Virus record (IMG/VR): IMGVR_UViG_2617271072_000004
Location: 32,726-96,725 of that record
DNA length: 64,000 nucleotides
Strand: one strand, 5' to 3'
Source: a virus
Taxonomy: Duplodnaviria > Heunggongvirae > Uroviricota > Caudoviricetes
Part shown: in pieces, positions 233-53,036 of the stretch
Numbering within the stretch: position 1 is the first letter of the stretch
Layout of the letters: each line of letters opens with the position of its first letter
Program-made: the position numbers and the translations under genes
Notes under the pieces: generated by a model
Seen by the model: only the letters and a program-made list of their open reading frames with translations
Database searches by the model: none
Told to the model about the DNA's origin: nothing

Positions 233-1084
233 ATGATAAATTATGTCTACGGCGAACAACTGTACCAGGAGTTCGTCAGCTTCAGGGATCTCTTTCTAAA
301 AAAAGCTGTTGCACGCGCCCAACACGTTGATGCCGCCAGCGACGGTCGTCCTGTTCGCCCGGTTGTCGTTCTGCCGTTCAAAGAAACGGACAGCATTCAG
401 GCTGAAATTGATAAATGGACTTTAATGGCGCGGGAACTGGAACAGTACCCAGACCTCAATATCCCAAAGACTATTTTATATCCAGTGCCTAACATCCTTC
501 GCGGTGTGCGTAAGGTTACGACTTATCAGACAGAAGCTGTGAACAGCGTCAACATGACCGCTGGCCGCATTATTCATCTGATTGATAAGGACATTCGCAT
601 CCAGAAAAGCGCGGGGATCAATGAGCACAGTGCGAAATACATAGAGAACCTGGAAGCAACAAAAGAGCTAATGAAGCAGTACCCGGAGGATGAAAAATTC
701 CGTATGCGTGTACACGGCTTTAGCGAAACAATGCTGCGCGTCCACTACATTTCCAGTAGCCCTAACTACAATGATGGTAAATCAGTTAGTTACCATGTGC
801 CGCTGTGTGGTGTGTTTATCTGCGATGAAACTCTCCGTGATGGAATCATCATCAACGGTGAATTCGAGAAAGCAAAATTTAGCCTTTATGACTCTATAGA
901 ACCGATCATCTGCGACCGCTGGCCGCAGGCAAAAATATATCGCCTGGCAGATATTGAAAATGTAAAAAAACAAATTGCCATCACTCGCGAAGAGAAAAAG
1001 GTCAAATCAGCCGCATCAGTTACGCGCAGCCGTAACACTAAGAAGGGGCAGCCAGTAAACGACAACCCCGAAAGCGCGCAATAG
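233..1084 (+). CDS. c1: C1 repressor of lysogeny (283 aa)
   Basis: 283-aa ORF with RBS GGAGGAGGA; size and N-terminus MINYVYGEQLYQEF match recalled P1 C1; its cognate 17-bp operator recurs across the window. Confidence 0.8.
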   Translation: MINYVYGEQLYQEFVSFRDLFLKKAVARAQHVDAASDGRPVRPVVVLPFKETDSIQAEIDKWTLMARELEQYPDLNIPKTILYPVPNILRGVRKVTTYQTEAVNSVNMTAGRIIHLIDKDIRIQKSAGINEHSAKYIENLEATKELMKQYPEDEKFRMRVHGFSETMLRVHYISSSPNYNDGKSVSYHVPLCGVFICDETLRDGIIINGEFEKAKFSLYDSIEPIICDRWPQAKIYRLADIENVKKQIAITREEKKVKSAASVTRSRNTKKGQPVNDNPESAQ

Positions 1085-4325: not shown

Positions 4326-4396
4326 CCTGTCACCTACTGATTAGCCCATGTCAACTAATCAACGTGGAATATAATACCCTCGATTAAAGAAATAGC

Positions 4397-4413
4397 AATA
4401 CATTAGAGCAATT
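4397..4413 (-). promoter_or_regulatory. C1-operator-like site (14/17) upstream of lpa-like gene
   Basis: minus-strand reading AtTGCTCTAATgtATTg; -35-like TTGCTC, 17-bp spacer, -10-like TTTAAT. Confidence 0.5.
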
Positions 4414-7690: not shown

Positions 7691-7741
7691 TTTTTTGAGG
7701 CTCGCGTTCTCTTTTTCAGCTCATCTACGCGCACCTGTAAT

Positions 7742-8392
7742 TCAGCTTTCGTTGGCATGGTCCACCTCATGCTTTTCAGCCACCAGCGGCAATAAAGCCC
7801 TGGCCATCTTATGAACCAATAGTGCATCAATAATGCCAAGCGTATGCCCCGGCTTAATGTTTAATGCCGCCTCAAGGTGACACCTTTCCAGGTCACTTTT
7901 CTCGGCTTGTTTATGATGATCTGGTGTAATAACGTCGCCCAAAACACGGCTAATTCTTTCTCGTAATTGCTGGGTGCCAGCACACTTGATCGCTGTATCG
8001 TGGAGACGGTTAACCAGTTCGCGATAAACATGCGGCTTAATGCGGATACGTTCACCGGTGACGCCCTTTCCTGGCGCTGGCACCGAACTATCCGGAATAT
8101 CCGGATAGTTGCCAGCCTCGTAAGCTACCCGCAGCCAGTGCATGAATGTTTCAGTGGACACACAACCACAGTCCACATCGATTTTTCCGCGTTGCTGTTC
8201 CAGCCAATGCTCAAAATTCAATCTACACGTATTACTTTCATGTTGCTCTTTTTGTCTCAAGGCCAGCATCTGCTGGGCTATTTCCAATACTTCATCTGCC
8301 GTATATCCAGCACCGTGACCATACATTTCGATACGGGAAATAATCTCTGATATGCGCTCTTCAGTGATTCTGGTCATTTCTTTTTGCGCCAT
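7742..8392 (-). CDS. hypothetical protein (216 aa)
   Basis: ORF with protein-like composition; no recognised motif. Confidence 0.55.
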   Translation of the reverse strand: MAQKEMTRITEERISEIISRIEMYGHGAGYTADEVLEIAQQMLALRQKEQHESNTCRLNFEHWLEQQRGKIDVDCGCVSTETFMHWLRVAYEAGNYPDIPDSSVPAPGKGVTGERIRIKPHVYRELVNRLHDTAIKCAGTQQLRERISRVLGDVITPDHHKQAEKSDLERCHLEAALNIKPGHTLGIIDALLVHKMARALLPLVAEKHEVDHANES

Positions 8393-8748
8393 TTCTTTTC
8401 ACATTCCTTAGTCCATTCTTCAATGTTCATTTTGGCAATATCAGTCATTCCATCACCTAAGAAATACTTTTTCCGGTATGTCTTGCACTTAAACCACACT
8501 ACAACAGCCACCAGCCAGAAAATAAAAGGCCATACAGCAATACCAACGACAGCCGCGATAAAGCCCAATAGCCATAAATGAAGCTCTCCAACTTCTGTTT
8601 CCGGCAATATTCTTAAAGAATTAAACAGCAGGATGAACGAATGGTCGTATGCATTGGCAGTATAAGACATGCAATCCATATAATTAAAGTCATAGCCTGC
8701 GGCTGCCGCCCATAATGGGCGGTCAAGAAAATGTTTTAGTGTCATCAT
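8374..8748 (-). CDS. putative membrane protein (124 aa, two hydrophobic helices, Lys-rich tail)
   Basis: Hydrophobic segments LWLLGFIAAVVGIAVWPFIFWLVAVVVWF. Confidence 0.5.
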   Translation of the reverse strand: MMTLKHFLDRPLWAAAAGYDFNYMDCMSYTANAYDHSFILLFNSLRILPETEVGELHLWLLGFIAAVVGIAVWPFIFWLVAVVVWFKCKTYRKKYFLGDGMTDIAKMNIEEWTKECEKKWRKKK

Positions 8749-8754
8749 ATAAAT

Positions 8755-9144
8755 TTAAGGTTCAGACCAGTTATCTTCAATAGCAATGCTTAATCTTTGT
8801 AGCCATTCTGCTAATTTCAGCATTGCTTCTCTTTCGCTTAAACCACGAGGAAAATCATCAAGCGAAATTGTTGGCTTGAATCCCCCGCAATTATCCATTT
8901 CAACTGTCAGATTTTGTTCCAGCACGGTATTTCTTACGCGGCTATTGTGCCGGAGCAAATATACTGAGCGTGATTTATTGGTTTTGTGGTCTAGCTTATA
9001 TTCGGTAAGTATCATCTGGCTTTTGCCATGATTATTACCTCTCCACATACTTACCTCACTTAATAAAACAACTCCATGCGTAGTTGATGATTTTTTCCCA
9101 CGTAATATAAATCTGCACTCCGGCAGTAAAACCAAAGCCAACAA
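8755..9144 (-). CDS. hypothetical protein (129 aa)
   Basis: ORF only. Confidence 0.45.
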   Translation of the reverse strand: MLALVLLPECRFILRGKKSSTTHGVVLLSEVSMWRGNNHGKSQMILTEYKLDHKTNKSRSVYLLRHNSRVRNTVLEQNLTVEMDNCGGFKPTISLDDFPRGLSEREAMLKLAEWLQRLSIAIEDNWSEP

Positions 9145-9227
9145 TTGCTGAAAAAATCAAAAACATTTACTTTTGACATTATAAATTTTCTCTCGGTGTC
9201 GTAGGTGATAGCACCATAATTGATAAT

Positions 9228-9464
9228 TTAGTGAGTTAGCAGTTCCAGTTCATTTTTGATGATTTCCGCATGAGCATCATCGTTATCAACACTTAGCTCG
9301 TTTAATGCTTCTCGCACTACATCAACTTCTTCAGGCTGAAAGAAGTCGTCGCGGTAATCACCAAATAGAACCGAAACCAGCCTGCCACCAGCAACATCAA
9401 GATTGGCGCTAACAGGTGGCTCTTTGCCATCCTCAAATTCGACTACAAAAGTTAATTTTCCCAT
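9228..9464 (-). CDS. hypothetical acidic protein (78 aa)
   Basis: ORF only. Confidence 0.45.
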   Translation of the reverse strand: MGKLTFVVEFEDGKEPPVSANLDVAGGRLVSVLFGDYRDDFFQPEEVDVVREALNELSVDNDDAHAEIIKNELELLTH

Positions 9465-9540
9465 CGTTACCCCCAGAAGATAAAAATAGCGGCAATCGCC
9501 ATAGCTACGCCTACAATCGCAAATGCTTCAGGCCAGCTTA

Positions 9541-10740
9541 TTACCTCACCTCCAGTCTCCATACCGCCTGACCAATCCGGCTGGCATGGGTATCTTTGGA
9601 TACTGTTCCATCTTTAGCCAGCTCCATAAGAATTTTGCGCAAATCTGCCGACCGCCATTCTTCATCAGGAAATTCCTTCTCCATTGCCAACCGCAGATTC
9701 CAGGTTGCCATCCTGAATGGATATTCCCCGCCGAGAGCTTTATCTTGCAGGGCAGCCCGGGAACGCATCACCTGCAAAACCTTCTCTTTTACATCCATCA
9801 TTTCGCCTCCTGCGGCGGTTCTGGTAGCGGCATCCAGAACAAGGCGTTCCCTACCCTGAAGCATGGCAGCGTGGCAGGCATCCTCTACGCCTTTAACTGC
9901 ATCTGCGCAGTAGTTATAGCGATTGCATTCCACTAACTTCTGCTTGAGATTTTCAATTGCTTGCGCGACATCATCCTGTATTTCCGGAACTGGCGGAACG
10001 GCTGTCTGCTGCTCTCGAACGTCATTAGTCGCTATCGGTTCTGCTGCCAACTGACTGGCATATTTGTTAATGGTAACGATAAGCTCTTGCTCAGCCTCAT
10101 CCAGACAATCACCGATACCTCGCCTGTCACCGTCAAAATCATCGAAATCGGCACGAATCCTGGCAACCTTCAGGATTGCGGACAACACCTCACTAGGAAT
10201 TGCCGGATAGTTGGTTGACGTTTCCGCGATTTCCCGAAAATTATTGGTTGACGAATTCTTGTTTTCCCGAAAGTTTCCGGACTGAAGCATGGCGGCGCGG
10301 CAGGCGTTAAGCGCGTTTTGCACGCGTTTAGCGTTCTGTACTTCGTATTTAGGTGCGGCTGCCAATGCCCATAGCCAACCAATTTCATAGCTATCAGCTT
10401 TTGATAGAGCACATTCCATTTCCAGTGTTATTTTCTTAGGTACGAGTTGCCAATCATCTGGCACTACCGGTGCTGGCAGCTCGCGATACAGCGAGATTAC
10501 ACGACGCGGGTCCGCATATTTATCTGGCGGACACTGAAATATCTCACCGAAACCATACTTCCTGACATCGCGCAGTTCCTCTTCATCAGTCCATGCCACC
10601 GGTTCTGCTTCCAGCGATGCCAGAGCAATCCGTGCCAGCTCTTCCGCTTCTTCTGCTGGCAGTACAACGTTGCTACCAGGTCCGTATGTTTCGCGCCACT
10701 GCTTGATTGTCAGCAGTCGCTCTTTGGTAATAGTGATCAT
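9541..10740 (-). CDS. hypothetical protein (399 aa) with internal repeated motif (NACRAAMLQSG / DACHAAMLQGR); start overlaps upstream nuclease-like gene (ATGA)
   Basis: Long ORF, translational coupling with 10737..11252. Confidence 0.6.
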   Translation of the reverse strand: MITITKERLLTIKQWRETYGPGSNVVLPAEEAEELARIALASLEAEPVAWTDEEELRDVRKYGFGEIFQCPPDKYADPRRVISLYRELPAPVVPDDWQLVPKKITLEMECALSKADSYEIGWLWALAAAPKYEVQNAKRVQNALNACRAAMLQSGNFRENKNSSTNNFREIAETSTNYPAIPSEVLSAILKVARIRADFDDFDGDRRGIGDCLDEAEQELIVTINKYASQLAAEPIATNDVREQQTAVPPVPEIQDDVAQAIENLKQKLVECNRYNYCADAVKGVEDACHAAMLQGRERLVLDAATRTAAGGEMMDVKEKVLQVMRSRAALQDKALGGEYPFRMATWNLRLAMEKEFPDEEWRSADLRKILMELAKDGTVSKDTHASRIGQAVWRLEVR

Positions 10741-11252
10741 GCCGCGTTTCCTTCTTTCTTATTAACAATTACACCGTCATATATTTCATTAAGGTGCCCT
10801 CTCAACTCCATGCGCCTTAATGCAGATAACATGTAATCGCATTCAACCTGCTTATTTCCAGTAAATGGCTTATCGTCAGGATTACCCCAACAGCAATTAC
10901 CCTTGGGCCACCCATGTACTTTCCGTACTCTTCCGTTAACAACGTGAAGTAATCCCCAGCCAGGTGGTAAATCCTCAATTGAAATAATTCCCGGCTCACT
11001 AATAAAGAATCGCCAGTCGCCCATGCCAAGTGAGGGATTTTTACGGAAACGCTTTTTTCTATCTGCCAACAAGTCAGCACGAGAACACTTCGCCTCTATC
11101 AGGCATGATGCTGAATTTCTGAACCCCATAGCATCTGGCTGTTCTCCGGTACTGGTTACAGCTATAAAGCGGTCATGAAAACAAACCTTGAACCCGTTGC
11201 GCTTAAGGAACTTGTACGCAATTTGACAGAGTTCGCGGTGTGTTAACGCCAT
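10737..11252 (-). CDS. PD-(D/E)XK nuclease-fold protein, MmcB-like (about 171 aa from MALTHREL); ORF track extends to 11441
   Basis: Motifs GEQPDAMGF and CLIEAKCSRADLLADRKKRF; RBS AAGGAGAG before internal ATG. Confidence 0.5.
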   Translation of the reverse strand: MALTHRELCQIAYKFLKRNGFKVCFHDRFIAVTSTGEQPDAMGFRNSASCLIEAKCSRADLLADRKKRFRKNPSLGMGDWRFFISEPGIISIEDLPPGWGLLHVVNGRVRKVHGWPKGNCCWGNPDDKPFTGNKQVECDYMLSALRRMELRGHLNEIYDGVIVNKKEGNAA

Positions 11253-11787
11253 ATCACTCTCCTTTAGTGCGCAAATGGTTTTTCCAGCGGTTTTGCGCCG
11301 CGCTGGGCTTTTGCAAAAACCACAATCCATCATCCCGTAATATTTCATCAACCCCATCCGTCGGTTGCTGAGTCTCACCCACTGCCAGACGCCAGGAGCG
11401 TTTCTACGAACTAACAGAATCTTTGCTTTACGGTTTTTCATCTTACAGCGTACCCTTTCTTCCGCCTGTTCTGTGACGCAGTAGGCTTACGCTTTGCGGC
11501 AAAAGCCACCTGACCAAATGGATGGAGTACCGCTATCTTATGGTTGCTAATAACCAGCTCCACCACACGCACAGGTCGCTGTAAAAAAAAGTCGTTTTGC
11601 CTTACGGTTTTTCATCGCTTTGCTCTCCTGCGTCTCTTTGCTGCTCGTCGTGCCGCTGCAATACCGGTATGGCGGCGCTTTGGTGCCGGGATGATGTTGT
11701 CAGCCATCAGGACATGTGGCTTTGCAATTAGCGCAGAAGCCCAAAAACGAGTCGGGTACGGTAACAAGCCGATACATGCCACACGCA

Positions 11788-12486
11788 CTACTCACCTCCG
11801 TTGATGCGAATGCCAGCGGCACGGGAATCATTCCATCGCTTTACTTCTTCACGAATTACGTCAATGCATTCTTTCGAATCCATTAGGTAATCTTCATCAA
11901 AAAGCCTTTCCTGTTCGTTTTCTATCGCAACAATGATTGCTTCAACTAACTTTTGTGCCTGAGAACCACTTTCTAACTCTGCAATGCGCTTCTCTGCGGC
12001 TTCCAGCTTCTCGCGCATATCGTCAACGTACTCGACCAGAGATCCGCCAGCAGGAATTTCGCACTCCTCGACCAGTTGGAAGTAGATATCAGCTGCGGCC
12101 CGTGTGTTGCTATGCCTAGCGTCGCCCATCTCACCTTCACGAAGAGCATCGCGTTCGGCGGTAAGATTGGCTATTTTGCTGTCTTTGCCTTCCAGCTCAA
12201 CGCGAAGCCTCCCTACCGTTAGCGCAATTTCCTCGTTCTCCTGGTCACGGCGTTTGATGTATTGCTGGTTTCTTTCCCGTTCATCCAGCAGCGCCAAGAC
12301 GGTAGCCGGATTGGCTGCGGCGATGAATTCAGCATCACGAGATTCGTTTTCACTGAACACCATAGCTATTTGCTCATGCTTTATGCCGTCAGTGGAGTAA
12401 ATCTCATCGTCGAATTCAACAGCCCACTTACCTTTCGTAGCCTTCTCCGCCGCCTCGCGCAGTTCTTGATAGTTAATTTTGCTCAC
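11788..12486 (-). CDS. Ead/Ea22-like family protein (232 aa), GTG start
   Basis: N-terminus VSKINYQELREAAEKATKGKW; coiled-coil middle; RBS AAAGGAGGC. Confidence 0.55.
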   Translation of the reverse strand: MSKINYQELREAAEKATKGKWAVEFDDEIYSTDGIKHEQIAMVFSENESRDAEFIAAANPATVLALLDERERNQQYIKRRDQENEEIALTVGRLRVELEGKDSKIANLTAERDALREGEMGDARHSNTRAAADIYFQLVEECEIPAGGSLVEYVDDMREKLEAAEKRIAELESGSQAQKLVEAIIVAIENEQERLFDEDYLMDSKECIDVIREEVKRWNDSRAAGIRINGGE

Positions 12487-13195
12487 TGGTTGCCTCCTTT
12501 GCGAAGCTGGGCAGCAAAGTCAACTAACCACTCAGTCATTTCAACCTTCCCTACCAGGTCTGAACCAGGGTGCATACAGCAATCACTCTGCGCCGCTTTG
12601 AAATCCTTATACTCATATTCTTGGGCCACCAGATTTTTGCAGCTTCTATAGCAGCATCCACCCCCTGCGCCCGAACTTCAGCCAGGAAAGCGTCGGTGGC
12701 TGGAATTTGCGGCATCCCTCCGTCTGTTGCGCAGATATACGCATCAGATATTTCATCCTGCTGGCCATCAAACACGTAGCAACAGCCCCTGATAAACAGC
12801 TTCATTGAGGCATTCTCCACTGCCAGCGCCGTGCGATTACCATCCAGCTCTGCAATGCGCTGTTTTGCGGCATCCAGTTCAATCGACAATTTTTCCAACT
12901 GCTCTTGATGCTTCTTGTATTCCTGATATGCGTGCCAAGACTGACCTTTGCGCACACTATCAGTGATATCAGTAATCTGTTCTGGTGTTAGCGTGGTCAG
13001 TGGCTGTGATGGGAAAATAAGCACTTTCCCGGAATCCCAATCAAAACCAGCGTGAATTGACTGAACCTCAACTGAAGGTGTTGAACCAATGCTGCCAGGC
13101 GAATGAACAACGATTGTTACATCCATATCGCGACGATGGCTGTGGTTGTTGGACAAAATACGATTCACCAACTCAGAAAATTTGGAAAATTTCAT
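12483..13195 (-). CDS. paralogue sharing the PATDAFLAE(V/I)RA block with 13479..14179; frame broken near 12640 (A-run)
   Basis: ORF 12551..13195 plus alternate-frame C-terminus ...EMTEWLVDFAAQLRKGGNQ* paralogous to neighbour C-termini. Confidence 0.45.
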
Positions 13196-13483
13196 GCTGA
13201 TTCCCCTTTCTCTGCTCTCTCCTGTCGGAACATCACTATCATCAGGTCGCCTTTTGTCGCTATCCTGGCTGTTGTACCTGGTTCAATGCGGCTAAGCTCA
13301 AATGCGTCATAGAACGCTTCTAATGCCTTCTGGCGTAGTTCCTGTTTGCGCCGTTTTTTCCACTGTTTTAGGAAAATGGAACCCAGCCATCGCCATGTAC
13401 GGGACATGATGTAAAGCCAACCGAGAAGTGCCAGACCGGTATTTAGGAGCGTATCGATCGTTATTGTCGTGTCGATATTCACT
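13192..13483 (-). CDS. small membrane protein (about 97 aa), GTG start overlapping upstream stop
   Basis: Hydrophobic LLNTGLALLGWLYIM; ORF track over-extends upstream. Confidence 0.4.
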
Positions 13484-14179
13484 GGCTGCTTCCTTTGCGA
13501 ATCTGTTCCGCCCATTCTTCAAGGGATTTCTCCGCATATTCACCAGACAGGCCATCAATCGGATGCGCTTCATTAGCCAACTCTTCTTTCGCTGACAAAA
13601 TCATGCGTGTAACGTCGAAAACTTCACGCAAAGACTTATTGATAAATCCGTGATTGAACGCAGCAGCAAGACGGCTGGCGGTATAGTTAATCCCCTCGTT
13701 GCGTGCTTCCGCACGAATTTCAGCCAGAAAAGCATCGGTAGCTGGAGTTTCGCTGTGGTGTAGGGCATCGTTGATAATCATTGCAGCAACACCAGCCTGC
13801 CCTGCATCCGTGACCGACACATGCTCAAGAGTTACGGCCATTGCGTGTTTCAGCCCGGCGTTCTCTGCCACCAGCGCCGCGAGCTTAGTCTCAAGCGGTG
13901 CTATTCGGCACATAGCATCAATATTTGTGTCCTCCAGGCGCTTAATTTCACCAAGTAGCGCCAGTGCAACCTTTGGGTTGAATGCGGCAACATAACGAGC
14001 GTTGTTCTCTGCGTTTTTCAGCCCATCAAAGCCGGTCCATTTGATAACATCTTCACATCGTTTATCACCGGGCGTATGCACCGCATACGTACCAGTACCC
14101 GGCGAAATAAATGCGACCCATTCGCCCTGTGTTGCCTGTTTTGCTATCTCACGCAGTGCCCGGTAATTAATTTTGCTCA
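13479..14179 (-). CDS. Ead/Ea22-like family protein (about 233 aa), GTG start; ORF track extends to 14216
   Basis: VSKINYRALREIAKQATQGEW N-terminus preceded by AAAGGAGGC RBS. Confidence 0.55.
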
Positions 14180-14417
14180 CTGGCTGCCTCCTTTGCGGAG
14201 TTGCGCTTCGATGCACGAAAAAAAAGACTCCCGAGTATGACTGTTAAGAGCTGGTGCGAACGCCGCGTTAAGAACGGCAGCATCACAGCCGTCATCAATA
14301 TAGAGCGCAATTTTTTTTCTCCAGGCGCGCTTTGGCTTCCTGCAACTGCATACCCCGGCACGCACGCGGGATATAATCAGCAATTTGAGCGATAGCTTTT
14401 TCGTTCTGTTTAAACAT
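14177..14417 (-). CDS. small protein (about 80 aa) ending ...IEAQLRKGGSQ; frame broken at T8 run near 14311
   Basis: ATG overlapping upstream stop; C-terminus paralogous to neighbours. Confidence 0.35.
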
Positions 14418-14613
14418 GCTTCACCTCGATAGGCTTGATGGTGTCTAACAGCAGTCGACGGCGCGTATTTTCTGCAAAGTGGCGGCGTCCGGTATCTTTG
14501 TGGTAAAACTCATTTTTGCCGACGACCCACATCCGCTCTGTTTGGTGCAGTTTTTTTACCTTCGGGCCATCTTTGGTGATCACGGTACCGGTATGGGTTT
14601 TTACGATTGTCAT
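14410..14613 (-). CDS. hypothetical small basic protein (67 aa)
   Basis: ORF, 4-nt overlap with PAPS-reductase-like gene. Confidence 0.4.
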   Translation of the reverse strand: MTIVKTHTGTVITKDGPKVKKLHQTERMWVVGKNEFYHKDTGRRHFAENTRRRLLLDTIKPIEVKHV

Positions 14614-15488
14614 TCCACTACCTCTTCGAATTTCAACTCCAATTGGTCACCCCAGATTTCACATGATTCGGAACACGAACCAGTATCAAACCGCTTGGCC
14701 AGCACCATCGCCTGATACAAATTTCTGTAGTCACTGTCGGCATACATTCTGGCAATCCCGTCAAGCGTCAGGTGGCCACGGTACATAACGTCTTTACCTG
14801 TTCTGCGATGACCATCCCTGACGTGTTTGCCTGTAACCAGTTCATTAAAAACCCGCATCAGACCTGGTTCGTCTTTACATGCAAGCCCCAGCTTTTGCGT
14901 TGACTTTTTGATGCAAAAAACACAGTTCCCGAGGTGCTCCGGGATTTGCAAATCAAAAGGTTGTTTTCGCCACCACCGGATAACATCCGACTTATCAAAA
15001 TCTGACAGTTCGGCAAGATACCGGACGCCCGGTTTCGGTTTCAGCCTACGGGGTTCGTCCGCACGAATACCCAGCCATGTGATGTAATTCCCTCGCCCAA
15101 AATGGTCATCGCAATATTTCGTGAAAGGGGTGAGTTTTAGCCTTTCAGTACAGAACGCGCCGCCGATGTATGGCGTACCGTACTTTTTAACCATGTCCAT
15201 AAACGGTTTAAGCACCGGCATTCGCGTCTGAATATCCTTTGGTTCCCATTCCGTATAACCATTTGGCTTCCCAATTTCTGGATTTATATCGACCTGCAAC
15301 ACCGTTAGCGGTACGTTCCAGAACTTCACAACCTCACGAATAAAGCGATACGTCAGAGGATGTTCACAGCCGGTATCCATAAAAATGAAATGGACGCTAG
15401 CGCCAGCTTTTCGCTGTGCTTCCATCAGATGAACGAGATAAGCCGATGTTCGTCCACCTGAAAAGCTGACGACTTGATGCATACTCAC
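14610..15488 (-). CDS. PAPS reductase-like (PP-loop ATP pyrophosphatase fold) protein, 292 aa
   Basis: PP-loop motif SFSGGRTS near N-terminus, C-terminal Cys cluster. Confidence 0.75.
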   Translation of the reverse strand: MSMHQVVSFSGGRTSAYLVHLMEAQRKAGASVHFIFMDTGCEHPLTYRFIREVVKFWNVPLTVLQVDINPEIGKPNGYTEWEPKDIQTRMPVLKPFMDMVKKYGTPYIGGAFCTERLKLTPFTKYCDDHFGRGNYITWLGIRADEPRRLKPKPGVRYLAELSDFDKSDVIRWWRKQPFDLQIPEHLGNCVFCIKKSTQKLGLACKDEPGLMRVFNELVTGKHVRDGHRRTGKDVMYRGHLTLDGIARMYADSDYRNLYQAMVLAKRFDTGSCSESCEIWGDQLELKFEEVVE

Positions 15489-15491
15489 GGT

Positions 15492-16070
15492 TTATTCCTG
15501 AATGCGCTTAAACTCGATTACCCATACCAACGGGTTAGATAGCCAGTTATCCTGCCCGTAAATACTGCGCCAGATATCACCAAAACCAACGCGATAAACA
15601 GCTTCAGATGGCGTAATCTTGTACGTCGCCGGAGTTGCGCCTTCTGCTTTAGCATCTGCCTCGCTCATGTCATGCAGCCGTTCCACACGCACGTCGGTAA
15701 TTTCCAGAAGAATGCGCGATGCCCAGCGCGGCATGTGAATTGATGGCGTCCACTTTTCTGATACTGGTTTATTACAAACCTCGACCGGAACCCGGTGCGT
15801 TTGTTCTGTCCAGGAGTTACGCACGCTTGCGCGATAAACCAGCGTTGCGACGTCCGTCGCTTTGCCATGTACCCGGTAGGTTTCGCGAACCCAAATACGA
15901 TCGCCCGGTTGACCATATGGACAATGCTTGGCAAGCAACTCTGCGGCCACTGCCCGTCCATAGAATTTTTCTTCAACAATCCTGCGAGTCTGTGTTTTAT
16001 TCCCGCCAAGAATTGCCCGGACCATCTCATCGTTAAAAATCATGCCGCGCTCTTTCACTTCGCCTTTCAT
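15492..16070 (-). CDS. ASCH/PUA-like domain protein (192 aa)
   Basis: N-terminal MIFNDEMVRAILGGNKTQTRR resembles ASCH GxKxxExR signature. Confidence 0.45.
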   Translation of the reverse strand: MKGEVKERGMIFNDEMVRAILGGNKTQTRRIVEEKFYGRAVAAELLAKHCPYGQPGDRIWVRETYRVHGKATDVATLVYRASVRNSWTEQTHRVPVEVCNKPVSEKWTPSIHMPRWASRILLEITDVRVERLHDMSEADAKAEGATPATYKITPSEAVYRVGFGDIWRSIYGQDNWLSNPLVWVIEFKRIQE

Positions 16071-16079
16071 ACATCCCCC

Positions 16080-16166
16080 TTACCCATGTGCGACGATGCC
16101 GCCAAAAGTGATAGAGAACAGCCAGAAATAGATCGCGGCCATAATGATTTTGAATGCCGTGTTCAT
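16080..16166 (-). CDS. 28-aa hydrophobic micro-protein (MNTAFKIIMAAIYFWLFSITFGGIVAHG)
   Basis: Strong RBS AGGAGC 7 nt before ATG; single predicted TM helix; below ORF-track size cutoff. Confidence 0.35.
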   Translation of the reverse strand: MNTAFKIIMAAIYFWLFSITFGGIVAHG

Positions 16167-16248
16167 ATTTTCAGCTCCTGTGATTGATTGGATACATGCC
16201 GCGCCTTGCGGCATGTTTTAATTTTCACTTTCTCTGTTTTAAAAATCA

Positions 16249-16265
16249 AGATTTATTAGAGCAAT
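16249..16265 (-). promoter_or_regulatory. C1-operator-like site (16/17) with TTGCTC-N17-TAAAAC promoter geometry
   Basis: plus strand agATTTATTAGAGCAAT at 3' end of HAD-like gene. Confidence 0.55.
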
Positions 16266-16771
16266 TATTGTTGATGAAGAAGTGCATTTTCATATTCCCT
16301 GACCATTAACGTAAGTACGCCGTGACTCCTGAAAACACGCGCCACTTCAATCTTATCTTCCAGCGCGAACGCAATTTTACTTAGACCAATTTTCTTCAGG
16401 AGATCAATCTTTGCAGGGCCGTCATTTCTGTCATCGGTGGCAGGACGCATAGATAGCAAAGGCTCAGCCCCATTTGTTACGTGCTTACGCAGCCAGGCTC
16501 GTGTTTTATCCCTTGCGATCTCACAGCGCCCGGTTACAAACCAGACCGTGTAAACGTTAAATAACTGGCGCACCATATCAATAACCGGAGTGATGGGAGT
16601 ATCGGTGTCACAGGCGAGATTAAACTCGTTCCAGTCCTTTGTTAATGCACCTTTACCTGGTGGCGGAAGCAAATGCAGTCTGTCTTCAGTTGCCTCTGAT
16701 ATTGTTCCATCAATATCGACTATGACGATATACGGACGTTCCTGGTGTGCGTGTTTATTGAAAATACTCAA
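16265..16771 (-). CDS. HAD-superfamily phosphatase-like protein (168 aa)
   Basis: Motif I VIVDIDGT near N-terminus. Confidence 0.6.
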   Translation of the reverse strand: MSIFNKHAHQERPYIVIVDIDGTISEATEDRLHLLPPPGKGALTKDWNEFNLACDTDTPITPVIDMVRQLFNVYTVWFVTGRCEIARDKTRAWLRKHVTNGAEPLLSMRPATDDRNDGPAKIDLLKKIGLSKIAFALEDKIEVARVFRSHGVLTLMVREYENALLHQQ

Positions 16772-16844
16772 ATGCCCTCCTCATTGGACGAAAAAAAATG
16801 CTGGTGGGCGCACTCCACCAGCATTAAAAGTGACGCTGTAACTA

Positions 16845-18107
16845 TCAGCGGACGTAAATAGTGCCGCCGTTCTCTTTTTCCCATGCATCGCTACGTGCAT
16901 AGCAAACATCGAGAAGTCTTCTTGCCGCTGTTTCCTCTAAACCCAATTCGACAACCAACTGCTCATGACGGCGGGTAACCACATCAAACAGGGTATGCAA
17001 CCCTTTAGTTGCCAGATCATCAATGAATTCCGGTTCGAACGGCAGCTCTGCATCTGCCAACATAACCTCTTGCGCCCACTCAACTCGACGGACCAATTCC
17101 GGGCGGCGGCTTTCCATCTCTTTACAGATCAATTCATGGAAGAACTCTACCCAACCTTCCGGCTGGAACTCGCGGAAAATTGCCAACGGCTGGAAGTTTG
17201 GCATCAACCATTCGTTGATTCGGATATCAATGGCATAGCCCATGTCGCAGCAGAACTGATAAGCAAAGTCCAGCTTAGAAACGATATAAGGACGCTCGTT
17301 ATTGAACTCTTTAGGCGATGAGATCCCATAAGCCAGGAGGCGCGGGAAGAAGGAGATTTGCCCTAACGTCGGATGAAGTTTGCTTGCAGGGAAACGGCGC
17401 TCAGTAATGCCATACATTTCCTTCTTGAGCGTCGCAAATTTGGCATTCTCATTAACCAGCGCGGTAACCTCTGCTTTTTTATTAGCAAATGCCACGCGCG
17501 CTTCGCTTGCATCTTTAATAGTTTTTTTGAGCTGTTGGTTAAGGTCGGCGACCTGCTTACGCAGTTCCTGTCGCTCGCTTTTAGCTTTGTTATAGCGTTT
17601 CTCAAGGTTAAAAGGATCAAGTTTCATGATCTCTTTATATTGAGATTTTAGCGTTGAAATCTGTGAGTTCCGCAGTTCAACCATCGCGGTCATTTCATTG
17701 AGTTTTGTTTCCAGCTCAATGCTTATACGTTCGGCATTATCAGCACGCTGGTTGGCGTCATGCGTCGCATCGTCGATCGCGTCCTGTTGCTGGCGTTTCA
17801 AATGTTCAATTTGTAGCTGAAGCTCTTCAATTTCTTTACCCTTCAGACCGAGATCCAACTGCATATTTTCAGCTGCATCTACCAGGGAGTTATGGCTATC
17901 AGCTTCTGCGTTATAAACATCAATAAGCTGTGCGTGAAGCATCTCCGCTGACTGAACCGCATTATCAAAAAAACGCGCTGTGAGGTCATCACAACTAACG
18001 CGGCGTTGCGCGGCCCGGATGTTCTGGATAATGGCCGGGATACCGGCATTCAGGACGTCAGGGATAGATACATTTTCGATTGATTGGTTTTGTGCTGAAG
18101 TGATCAT
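16845..18107 (-). CDS. coiled-coil protein (420 aa) with unknown C-terminal domain
   Basis: About 180 aa of heptad-rich sequence (EIEELQLQIEHLKRQQQ...), then globular C-terminus. Confidence 0.6.
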   Translation of the reverse strand: MITSAQNQSIENVSIPDVLNAGIPAIIQNIRAAQRRVSCDDLTARFFDNAVQSAEMLHAQLIDVYNAEADSHNSLVDAAENMQLDLGLKGKEIEELQLQIEHLKRQQQDAIDDATHDANQRADNAERISIELETKLNEMTAMVELRNSQISTLKSQYKEIMKLDPFNLEKRYNKAKSERQELRKQVADLNQQLKKTIKDASEARVAFANKKAEVTALVNENAKFATLKKEMYGITERRFPASKLHPTLGQISFFPRLLAYGISSPKEFNNERPYIVSKLDFAYQFCCDMGYAIDIRINEWLMPNFQPLAIFREFQPEGWVEFFHELICKEMESRRPELVRRVEWAQEVMLADAELPFEPEFIDDLATKGLHTLFDVVTRRHEQLVVELGLEETAARRLLDVCYARSDAWEKENGGTIYVR

Positions 18108-18108
18108 T

Positions 18109-18327
18109 TCAAAGTTCCGTATTAGCTTGTGCTTCGGTCATTTTTCCTAAGTATGAAGGAGGAAGGACTACGCAATTTGTATCCAGTCCCTCACCTATGG
18201 CAGCCTGTAAAATTCTGGCTAAGGTGAGTCTCTTGTTGCGATACCTGGTGATGACATGCCTGATACCGCCGGTCGGCGTAACAAAGGCGATCAGCCAGTA
18301 GTGATATTTCCGTCGGAATGGCCACAT
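18109..18327 (-). CDS. small protein (72 aa from MWPFRRKYHYW); ORF track extends to 18378
   Basis: ATG preceded by AAGGTG RBS and an operator-like site. Confidence 0.4.
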   Translation of the reverse strand: MWPFRRKYHYWLIAFVTPTGGIRHVITRYRNKRLTLARILQAAIGEGLDTNCVVLPPSYLGKMTEAQANTEL

Positions 18328-18341
18328 AGTGCACCTTGTAG

Positions 18342-18358
18342 ATTGCTCTAATAAAAAA
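18342..18358 (+). promoter_or_regulatory. C1-operator-like site (14/17), inverted relative to the others
   Basis: ATTGCTCTAATAAaaaa. Confidence 0.45.
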
Positions 18359-18386
18359 ACGTGATGAGTGTACATCACGTTTTAAA
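18357..18386. terminator. hairpin AACGTGATG-agtgtac-CATCACGTT flanked by A-run and T-run (bidirectional intrinsic terminator)
   Basis: 9-bp perfect stem, run of A on one side and T on the other. Confidence 0.55.
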
Positions 18387-18391
18387 AATAT

Positions 18392-18408
18392 GGAATTATT
18401 AGAGCAAT
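18392..18408 (-). promoter_or_regulatory. C1-operator-like site (14/17) abutting stop codon of glycosyltransferase gene
   Basis: ggaaTTATTAGAGCAAT. Confidence 0.45.
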
Positions 18409-18409
18409 A

Positions 18410-19111
18410 TTATTCTAATTCTCGCTCAAAAAATGAGCTGATAAGGGGAAGCCAATCCTCTGACACTTCGCGAGGTCGCGGTTTGCCGTGGAAAAAGATT
18501 ATTCGGCAGTCTTTTGGTAATGCCCCATTCCCCCTGGAGTAACGCGCGCTCGCATATTTTGAACCAGGTTCCACAACATCGGCCTTGTAACTTACAAACC
18601 ATCCTGGATACAGATCCTGAAATGCTGGTGTATCATCGCCCATAACCTTTCGTAAGAACCCCTGGTCACCCCAGCACTCAGTAGTGACACAACGAGAAAT
18701 CCAACCTTCCGGATCTTGCCAGAATGAACTCCAGATATGCGCTTTAACACTATTTGGTATCCACAGGGCACCGCTGCCACGATATTGTGGATGGTAAAAA
18801 TCCCTAAGCATGGTGAAGCTGGTTGGTGGATGCTCTAGGATTGGGCGTATATCACCGGCAATAACCGTGTCCAAATCCAGATAGAACAGATCATCGGTTA
18901 TATCCGGTCGGAACAACTCGATTTTCGCCCACCAGCCACGGCACTTTTGCCACTGGTTGATCAATGGGATAACTTTGACGCCAGGTACATGTAAACACTT
19001 CAGGTCTGTCAGGCAAATAATTTCATAGTCTTTTGGCAGTTGATTAACCAGCCACTGCACATCGGAAGCGTTATAGTCACCACCAGAGCGAAGAACTAAA
19101 GCAATCTTCAT
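18410..19111 (-). CDS. putative GT-A-type glycosyltransferase (233 aa)
   Basis: DLD motif (YLDLDTV) after N-terminal Rossmann-like strand; 4-nt overlap with ppp. Confidence 0.5.
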
Positions 19112-19800
19112 GCTGCACCATCACCTTTCACTTTCATCAATGTCAGGTTTCCGCAAAATACGGCACCAGTGTCGATATACTGCTGATTCCAGAATGTCTT
19201 CGGGCTTTTCACCGGAGTGTGACCAAAGATAAAACGATCTGCGCCCGAAATTTCGCCACCAATATCATCCATCGAATCACTGATACGCTCGCGCGCCCAG
19301 ACAACGTTGAAAAGCGGTACCTCCTTACCGAATTGGTATTCATTATCCGGATAGTCGGCATGGGCTATAACGATAGTTTCTTGCCCGGTGTTCAACTCAA
19401 TGATATAGGGCAGACGCTTTACCAGCTCCACCAGCGCCCAGGCTAATATTTCCTGATCAGTGTCCAGCATGAAGAACCATTGTCCGCCATTCATTAGCCA
19501 GTTATTCACGTTGCCATCTGGACTTAACGCATCAATCATCAGCCGCTCATGGTTCCCCATCACTGCCCTGAACCAGGGCATCTGCAATAGTTCCAGACAT
19601 TCGACATTTTCAGTACCGCGATCGATAAGGTCGCCGACCGATATCAGTAAATCCTGCGCCGGGTCAAAATCCACACGATGGAGTTCGGACATCAGTCTGG
19701 TGTAGCAACCATGCAGATCACCAACAACCCAGACATTCCTGTATTTGGTACCGTCGATACGGTGATAAATTGTGGGTGCCATCATGTATTCTTCAGCCAT
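19108..19800 (-). CDS. ppp: serine/threonine protein phosphatase, lambda-PPase-like metallophosphatase (230 aa)
   Basis: GDLHGC, GDLIDRG, GNHE metallophosphatase motifs. Confidence 0.85.
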
Positions 19801-19894
19801 TCTTTAAGAGTCATCTGCGGAATACCTCCCATTTTCCCGCATGAAACAACGTCAATCCGTTCACGCGCAGACTGGAATAACAAAGGCAGGTGAC

Positions 19895-20407
19895 TTAGAT
19901 TTTTGGCGTGCCGCCGGAGTGAACGCGTGGTTCTTGTGTAGCGTCAACGCCCACCAGGGCGACATGTTTGAATCCGATATGGAAAGCCAGGTTCAGAGCA
20001 CCATATGCACTATTGCCGCTGGCAATTTCATTCTCATCTTCGCAAAGTCCGAAATGTGCGGACCAGCGCCACGCCCACCACTCGGGAGAATTCGTATTTT
20101 TTGGCTCCATGCCACGTTCAGCCACACGACGGAAGCACAGAACGCCGTCTCTGACTTCACGTTCTTTAACATCGGGTAGTGCCATGCAATAACAAACACC
20201 ACGGCGACGGCGGCCACGACCAACGCGCCGCATATTGTCTGGCGATGGATCAAGTGTGAAAAAATAAGAAGCGCGGTTCAGCCAGTCGATGGCCCCATTG
20301 ACCGCTATAATCGGCACTCCGCGCGGCGCAACAAAGTTTGCGGCGCTTGGGCCACTGCCGACGATAATAACGCGATCACTGCCTCTAAATTTATTCTTGG
20401 GAAACAT
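19895..20407 (-). CDS. Rossmann-like protein (170 aa), motifs IIVGSGPS, IIAVNGA, LVGVDA; paralogue of upstream gene
   Basis: Motif pattern resembling DUF115/MptE-like fold (tentative). Confidence 0.45.
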   Translation of the reverse strand: MFPKNKFRGSDRVIIVGSGPSAANFVAPRGVPIIAVNGAIDWLNRASYFFTLDPSPDNMRRVGRGRRRRGVCYCMALPDVKEREVRDGVLCFRRVAERGMEPKNTNSPEWWAWRWSAHFGLCEDENEIASGNSAYGALNLAFHIGFKHVALVGVDATQEPRVHSGGTPKI

Positions 20408-51347: not shown

Positions 51348-51364
51348 AAATTTATTAGAGCAAA
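51348..51364 (-). promoter_or_regulatory. C1-operator-like site (16/17) upstream of kilA-repL
   Basis: plus strand AAATTTATTAGAGCAAa. Confidence 0.65.
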
Positions 51365-53019: not shown

Positions 53020-53036
53020 AAATTTATTAGAGCATT
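53020..53036 (-). promoter_or_regulatory. C1-operator-like site (16/17) at head of immI (c4-icd-ant) region
   Basis: plus strand AAATTTATTAGAGCAtT. Confidence 0.65.

Follow-up and report, generated by a model that had tools for sequence, protein, structure and literature searches.

The closest described relatives of the locus treated here are the C1-repressed early gene sets of the phage-plasmids P1 and P7. In P1 (NC_005856) the genes read pmgN-pmgO-pmgP-ppp-pmgQ, pmgR-pmgS-pap and pmgT-pmgU-pmgV, and in the P1 and P7 records the pmgN, pmgR and pmgT units have separate operators and promoters; as annotated, the units are pmgN-pmgO-pmgP-ppp-pmgQ ('hdm' in P7), pmgR-pmgS ('sht') and pmgT onward ('hea'), all leftward. 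Further close relatives are the hdm, sht and hea operons of P7 and SJ46, and the P1-like phage-plasmids of E. coli and Salmonella. Single in-frame deletions in P1, including those of ppp, pmgQ, pmgS, pap, pmgT and pmgU, leave plaquing normal and anti-restriction activity unchanged, while pmgR is essential, its loss leaving heads and tails unjoined; the same authors conclude that genes 88-103 do not belong to the 'head structure and processing' class (PMC9024508). A CRISPR interference screen found ppp, pmgQ, pmgS, pap and pmgT to be non-essential; it also called pmgR non-essential, and its authors list pmgR as a known essential gene that was missed (PMC10695390). We report that a 64,000-nucleotide (nt) stretch of a Caudoviricetes virus (IMG/VR record IMGVR_UViG_2617271072_000004, positions 32,726 to 96,725; the whole stretch is referred to as the window) carries this gene set. 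Its positions 14410-19800, which a first-pass annotation had read as one operator-controlled cluster of eight genes for predicted modification enzymes, very probably represent the long-annotated C1-repressed early genes of a P1/P7-type (Punavirus) phage-plasmid, organised in three operons that share a regulator and timing and do not form one pathway. The locus as a whole is already known, in that the P1 and P7 records and the two recent functional screens hold its genes, its operators and the dispensability of most of its genes.

The ppp-pmgQ-pmgR-pmgS-pap block is 98-99% identical to P1, P7, SJ46, RCS47 and many other P1-like phage-plasmids (megablast, phage genomes), and P1 aligns with window positions 15979-23000 at 98.3% identity with five gaps. 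The identity to the P1 proteins is 100% for PmgS and PmgR, 99.1% for PmgQ, 98.7% for Ppp and 97.0% for Pap. The plasmid collection contains 1222 matching records, and because 54 of these cover at least 80% of window positions 13000-20900, the PAPS-reductase gene included, this exact arrangement is a common variant in E. coli and Salmonella phage-plasmids, with an exchangeable cargo operon controlled by operator Op88. All eight minus-strand open reading frames (ORFs) of the first-pass annotation are present in the ORF list of the window, and the junctions are tight, with 4-nt overlaps at 14610-14613 and 19108-19111 and three other gaps of 1-9 nt. The genes of the locus and its flanks are (aa, amino acids; Stx, Shiga toxin):

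14410-14613, minus strand: 67-aa ORF (phrog_1226, 3e-42), part of a cassette common to Stx phages
14610-15488, minus strand: NinC-like PP-loop/PAPS-reductase-family protein, 292 aa (Pfam PAPS_reduct, phrog_424)
15492-16070, minus strand: PmgT-like protein with a predicted ASCH fold (fold comparison), 192 aa, first long gene of the Op88 operon
16080-16166, minus strand: putative 28-aa hydrophobic ORF, MNTAFKIIMAAIYFWLFSITFGGIVAHG, with AGGAG 8 nt upstream of its ATG
16265-16771, minus strand: pap, HAD/PNKP-type phosphatase, 168 aa, TTG start (Pfam HAD_PNKP)
16845-18107, minus strand: pmgS, 420-aa coiled-coil protein (P1 PmgS; phrog_1660)
18109-18327, minus strand: pmgR, 72 aa (P1 PmgR)
18410-19111, minus strand: pmgQ (hdmD in P7), 233 aa, predicted GT-A, GT8-like (P1 PmgQ)
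19108-19800, minus strand: ppp, lambda-type Mn-dependent Ser/Thr phosphatase, 230 aa (match to 1G5B)
19782-20407, minus strand: pmgP, MptE/DUF115-like, frameshifted by a 1-nt homopolymer deletion near 19905
20305-20968, minus strand: pmgO, MptE/DUF115-like, frameshifted by a 1-nt homopolymer insertion near 20850
20913-21065, minus strand: pmgN, first gene of the Op83-controlled unit (P1 annotation)

An 89-aa version of pmgR with a GTG start was rejected, since the start would fall inside the promoter/operator region.

The C1 operator is a 17-bp asymmetric site, and scanning with its consensus ATTGCTCTAATAAATTT and up to three mismatches gave 11 matches in the window versus 0.18 expected by chance. 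Operator and promoter assignments were taken from the feature notes of the GenBank/RefSeq P1 and P7 records. The operator-like sites noted at 16249, 18342 and 18392 in the first-pass annotation (1, 3 and 3 mismatches to the consensus, respectively) are base-for-base, and in the same positions, the P1 C1 operators Op88, Op86b and Op86a; the repressor control that they had been taken to imply is right, but long known. The window also carries a nearly identical c1 gene, and by its identity with P1 we infer that C1 binds and represses in this element. The regulatory features are:

233-1081, plus strand: c1 repressor gene (tblastn with P1 C1, 99.3% identity over 283/283 aa)
16194-16216, no strand given: perfect 10-bp palindromic hairpin, 5' leader of Op88 operon
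16249-16265, minus strand: C1 operator Op88 (OpmgT), ATTGCTCTAATAAATCT, exact P1 copy, overlapping the predicted pmgT promoters
16797-16825, minus strand: strong intrinsic-terminator-like hairpin between pmgS and pap, 11-bp stem followed by T7 (consensus scan)
18342-18358, plus strand: C1 operator Op86b (OpmgRb), exact P1 copy
18356-18383, minus strand: hairpin directly after pmgQ, 11-bp stem and T-run (consensus scan), overlapping the -10 of PpmgR
18392-18408, minus strand: C1 operator Op86a (OpmgRa), exact P1 copy, overlapping the -35 of PpmgR
21110-21126, plus strand: counterpart of Op83 (Oppp/Op(hdm)), TATGCACTAATTAATTT, 1 nt off the annotated P1 Op83, upstream of pmgN

Given three separate operators and promoters with hairpins between them, the eight genes probably comprise the tail of the first unit, all of the second unit plus pap, and the head of the third. 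The hairpin at 18356-18383 is probably the terminator of the upstream (pmgQ) unit. It overlaps Op86b with its T-run and the -10 of PpmgR with its stem; transcription arriving from upstream would end at this hairpin, and transcripts from PpmgR would begin inside it. Two points weigh against this division: the hairpin between pmgS and pap leaves pap, which lies past this terminator, without an obvious promoter, and the unit boundaries derive from the P1 annotation and from consensus scans.

On this organisation, C1 would occupy Op83, Op86a/b and Op88 in the plasmid-prophage state and thereby silence three consecutive leftward units, which induction or infection would switch on. The first unit, from Op83, would provide pmgN-pmgO-pmgP-ppp-pmgQ, i.e. 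a candidate glycosylation module with ppp inserted, and the second would supply the coiled-coil protein PmgS and a stand-alone HAD enzyme of 3'-phosphatase type (Pap). The third unit, from Op88, would represent exchangeable cargo with the 28-aa ORF, the ASCH-fold PmgT-like protein, the NinC-like PP-loop enzyme and the 67-aa ORF, and further on Ead/Ea22-like and DUF4752 genes taken from lambdoid early-left regions.

The first-pass annotation had gone further and suggested that the eight genes, under repressor control, could specify a single pathway for modifying nucleic acid or protein, with anti-restriction or host takeover as its purpose. Its protein families hold at the fold level (see below), as does the repressor control, while we regard one common pathway as highly improbable. 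The genes are indeed co-directional, tightly packed and C1-controlled, several of the products look like enzymes (one PP-loop protein, one glycosyltransferase and two phosphatases), and other phages have NinC-like proteins that are fused to Dam methyltransferases or encoded next to them. However, the genes are divided among three units that have their own operators and promoters and are set apart by terminator-like hairpins, the ASCH/NinC block is mosaic and the gene content past Op88 differs among P1, P7, the D6-like elements and the window, no DndD/SspC-type nucleoside triphosphatase (NTPase) partner is present in the operon, and anti-restriction is unimpaired in the P1 single-gene deletion mutants (PMC9024508). 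Nor do the genes keep together outside this lineage. The co-occurrence comparison that the first-pass annotation had suggested as a check was run on 80 PmgQ loci and 80 NinC viral loci, and the single-pathway idea was rejected after it. In the distant PmgQ subset (35 viral loci with 35-43% identity, 10-kb range), homologues of Ppp, PmgR, PmgS, Pap, PmgT and NinC were found near PmgQ in 0/35 loci. Among the NinC loci, an ASCH/PmgT-like gene is nearby in only four; Ppp is nearby in eight, which are lambdoid nin regions and P1- or D6-like elements, and Pap, PmgQ, PmgS and PmgR occur together in just one, a P1-like element. Ppp is the orthologue of the lambda phosphatase NinI, encoded together with ninC in the lambda nin region.

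The one association that survives outside the P1 lineage is that of PmgQ with a PmgO-like gene. Of the 35 distant viral loci, 20 have such a gene (PmgP-like in one of them) along with PmgQ, and in about half of the 20 it lies directly upstream. PmgQ itself had been guessed to be a GT-A-like glycosyltransferase with a DxD motif, and its predicted fold agrees: the AlphaFold2 (AF2) model built from a 54-sequence alignment (predicted local distance difference test, pLDDT, 95; predicted template-modelling score, pTM, 0.92) matches glycogenin, LgtC, GlyE and the Skp1 galactosyltransferase AgtA in Foldseek at E~1e-8 and probability 1.0, all GT-A folds of GT8 type, and the DxD motif (D79-L80-D81) is invariant in the 54 sequences. 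No Pfam or NCBIfam family matches PmgQ at threshold; on the model it is a predicted GT8-like GT-A glycosyltransferase. Together with its partners it looks like a glycosylation module, PmgO/PmgP/PmgQ, and since ppp is missing from a divergent P1-like contig (L050) that reads pmgO-pmgP-pmgQ-pmgR, it appears to have been inserted into this module.

The gene context of the distant homologues offers a clue to what the module might modify. Of six annotated contexts, five place the PmgQ homologue after or before the major capsid gene with head-completion or tail genes on its other side, often with MptE-like and methyltransferase genes beside it (the sixth is a lone chromosomal gene), and in 17 further viral contigs the commonest neighbours of PmgQ encode portal, capsid, head-tail connector, FkbM-type methyltransferase, MptE-like and GT2 proteins. 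By analogy with these phages, the most economical reading is that the module most likely puts a sugar on a virion protein. We suggest, more tentatively and with considerable doubt, that PmgQ, PmgO and PmgP represent a widespread phage module for virion-protein glycosylation, present in hundreds of viral contigs, usually in the capsid-tail region and often with methyltransferases. Freeman et al. 2023 reportedly described mycobacteriophage virion glycosylation cassettes in which glycosyltransferases are encoded next to capsid and tail genes. The distant PmgQ homologues resemble such cassettes (see also PMC11256854) in being encoded beside capsid, head-completion and tail genes together with glycosyltransferases and methyltransferases, and the genes are dispensable for plaques; unlike in the mycobacteriophages, the P1 module lies in an early C1-controlled block, and the likeness is one of gene context.

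Several observations weigh against virion glycosylation as the role of the module in the element studied here. The module is not in the head cluster but in the early C1-controlled block, adjacent to and divergent from tail genes 26 and 25; PmgO and PmgP match Pfam MptE-like only below threshold; and virion glycosylation of P1 is unreported, with no mention of it in PMC9024508. Moreover, pmgO and pmgP are each frameshifted in the window, with A5 near 19905 in pmgP where P1, P7 and the near-identical plasmid CP148519 have A6, and A7 near 20850 in pmgO where the same three have A6; these frameshifts may be sequencing errors, or two genes of the module may be inactivated. GT8-type enzymes also include lipopolysaccharide (LPS) core transferases, which makes a host-surface target possible. 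On that alternative, PmgO/P/Q would glycosylate the host surface during lytic growth, for example the LPS core that serves as the P1 receptor, and would in this way prevent new particles from binding to cell debris or shut out superinfecting phage. The LPS core is where P1 adsorbs, the lipo-oligosaccharide galactosyltransferase LgtC (GT8) is among the best structural matches of PmgQ, and expression of PmgO/P/Q is, by the P1 annotation, early and C1-controlled. We nevertheless consider the host surface an unlikely target. The other top matches (glycogenin, GlyE, Skp1 AgtA and UGGT) are protein-directed enzymes, and a phage-borne acceptor is the easier explanation because the distant PmgQ homologues are found inside capsid-to-tail modules that also encode methyltransferases, in contigs of siphovirus-, myovirus- and podovirus-like type whose hosts differ in their envelopes. 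If glycosylation of a virion protein is the right reading, P1, an E. coli model phage for 70 years, carries an unnoticed non-essential glycan on its particles and ppp is a mere insertion; the conserved pairing of PmgO and PmgQ in the virion structural modules of many phages would then give the 'putative morphogenetic' labels of P1 a concrete meaning, namely virion glycosylation. In a separate comparison, P1 PmgO gave nothing meaningful against PDB sequences.

The third unit is a mosaic. Downstream of Op88, P1 has pmgT-pmgU-pmgV and P7 has upf86.8-upf90.8, while the window has approximately 7.4 kb of other cargo before pmgU. The window carries an ASCH-fold gene whose 192-aa product is only 43% identical to P1 PmgT (309 aa) over PmgT aa 1-239, followed by the NinC-like gene and the cargo, both of which are missing from P1; the last 78 residues of PmgT, and pmgU, map some 7.4 kb further on at 8124-7781 (pmgU at 8083-7781). 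P7 is 98.2% identical to the window from 15661 onward, which includes most of the 192-aa ASCH-like gene (upf86.8). Unlike the window, it has no PAPS-reductase gene and its Op(hea) operon proceeds with the unrelated upf87.4-upf90.8. The ASCH/PAPS-reductase block is thus absent from P1, and only its ASCH-like gene is present in P7. The NinC-like gene and the 67-aa ORF are 92% identical at the nucleotide level to a cassette of Stx2 phages, which in phage PA2 lies in the early-left ('ea') region between recT and eaA. The remainder of the Op88 operon (7700-14400, minus strand) has two Ead/Ea22-like genes, one DUF4752 gene and ORFs of 399, 234, 214, 129 and 124 aa with no family match, and this part is lambdoid early-left-type cargo in a P1-type element. 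Unlike in the lambdoid phages, the genes of the window are controlled by P1 C1 operators and not by CI/N, belong to a myovirus phage-plasmid and are distributed over separate operons.

D6-like phage-plasmids carry Ppp, other genes and then the ASCH and NinC genes, with no PmgQ, PmgS or Pap nearby; in two D6-like contigs (L094 and L095) a Ppp homologue, an ASCH-fold gene and a NinC-like gene 98% identical to that of the window are found within 3.4 kb. As judged from these sequences, the D6-like loci show that the cassette has been exchanged recently between phage-plasmid lineages. The P1 pmgT gene as annotated resembles a fusion, with residues 1-239 similar to the ASCH-fold gene and the last 78 residues matching the 3' end of a 216-aa ORF that stands apart in the window, some 7.4 kb away (window 7742-8392 and 15492-16070; contig L001, 3127-4056). 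What is seen in the P1 reference may therefore have arisen by deletion from a longer cargo operon.

The 192-aa protein, which had been guessed to be ASCH/PUA-like, is of that kind at the fold level. Its AF2 model (pLDDT 88.8) gave ASCH or ASCH-related structures as 15 of the top 16 Foldseek PDB matches (best E 1.3e-4, target-normalised TM 0.5-0.7), and the ASCH-type structures matched are 3S9X, YqfB 9KYF, PH0355, EF3133, ZmASCH, PF0470 and DUF984, of which YqfB is an N4-acetylcytidine (ac4C) amidohydrolase. Against the Pfam ASCH model PF04266 the protein scores 15.3 bits, under the gathering threshold of 21.2; of 59 homologues, 33 match PF04266 below threshold only (best E 0.0011), and a profile of the PmgT-like family had no match among PDB sequences. 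We take the protein to have a predicted ASCH fold and not to be a member of the curated ASCH family. The first homologue search for it gave only sequences at least 96% identical, and the alignment was built from a representative search instead, in which the family comprises 42,792 representative clusters at E≤1e-3. A distant ASCH-fold homologue is found in a phage replication region without a PAPS reductase.

For the 292-aa protein, the suggested PP-loop PAPS-reductase-like identity is confirmed by Pfam PAPS_reduct (PF01507) at 37.7 bits, above the cut-off of 22.5 (2.7e-9), and by phrog_424 (2e-92). Its PP-loop, SFSGGRTS at residues 8-15, is invariant in 40 homologues (S8-x-S10-G-G-R-x-S15), as are Cys113, Cys126, Cys189, Cys192 and Cys276. 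DNA phosphorothioation by this protein was rejected, since there is no similarity at the level of DndC (TIGR03183, 17 bits versus a cut-off of 290) and no NTPase partner of the DndD/SspC/BrxC kind, the ten ORFs downstream having no NTPase domain.

The family may have a DNA-directed role of another kind. Three NinC-like homologues (P0484, P0497 and P0508) are fused to a Dam (PF05869) domain, and Vibrio phage 44E38.1 offers an example of a natural Dam-NinC fusion. Of the 80 NinC viral loci, 19 have a Dam-like ORF no more than 8 kb away, which in approximately 12 of them is the direct neighbour (L110, L111, L125, L127, L132-L134, L138 and L140-L143). Because of these fusions and adjacencies, which are in line with DndC, SspD and BrxP, the data suggest that the NinC-like PP-loop family acts on DNA. 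The PAPS-reductase-domain proteins DndC, SspD and BrxP do act on DNA, with a required P-loop NTPase partner (PMC12914056). It is therefore conceivable, though in our view rather unlikely, that the NinC-like protein works independently of the other genes, perhaps assisted by the ASCH-fold protein in the part of reader or hydrolase, and adds or takes away a base or backbone modification of DNA or RNA. The PP-loop and the invariant cysteines, the Dam fusions and neighbours and the precedent of these three DNA-acting proteins speak for it, and an ac4C amidohydrolase such as YqfB among the ASCH proteins would suit the role given to the ASCH-fold partner. On the other side, the NinC-like gene of the window has no Dam-type gene or NTPase partner next to it, its score against DndC is far below the cut-off, ASCH and NinC genes are seldom neighbours (4/80 loci), and P1 has no NinC-like gene, which makes it dispensable for P1-type biology. 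The association of NinC with Dam may point to a DNA-directed activity, so far uncharacterised, of lambdoid and P1-like phages; this lead and that of the PmgO/PmgQ pair are both independent of whether the eight-gene cluster is a unit.

The two phosphatases are as had been supposed from the sequence. Ppp, expected to be a lambda-type Ser/Thr phosphatase, matches the lambda phosphatase along its full length (1G5B, E 1.5e-94, residues 11-229; NCBIfam PRK11439, 3.3e-81), and the metallophosphoesterase motifs GDLHG, GDLIDRG and GNHE are present in its translation. Pap, expected to be of HAD type, matches Pfam HAD_PNKP (PF25109) at 46.7 bits, above the cut-off of 27.6 (4.5e-12), and phrog_415, polynucleotide kinase (1.7e-57), and has its DxDxT nucleophile motif as DIDGT at residues 19-23. 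A bifunctional kinase-phosphatase of the T4 Pnkp type was rejected for Pap, which is only 168 aa long and has no kinase domain. It covers only the phosphatase part (positions 156-292 of the 295 in the phrog_505 profile), and on this alignment Pap is a predicted phosphatase-only relative of T4 Pnkp.

The putative 28-aa ORF at the head of the third unit, which the P1 annotation lacks, is preceded by a good Shine-Dalgarno sequence. Of 43 related loci, 42 keep the ORF intact, and in the 42 loci aligned over most of the region it has 7 synonymous versus 6 non-synonymous variable sites, which argues only weakly for coding. Between Op88 and this ORF lies the palindromic hairpin at 16194-16216 (ACATGCCGCG...CGCGGCATGT), with a T-run following it on the plus strand.

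Additional matches to the C1 operator consensus are found at 122-138, 4396-4412, 22017-22033, 32353-32380, 35886-35902, 51348-51364 and 53020-53036. Among these further matches are the counterpart of Op94/Olpa near lpa, the Op82/O26 site and an overlapping pair at 32353-32380, and the operator matches across the window fit a complete immunity regulon of P1 type.

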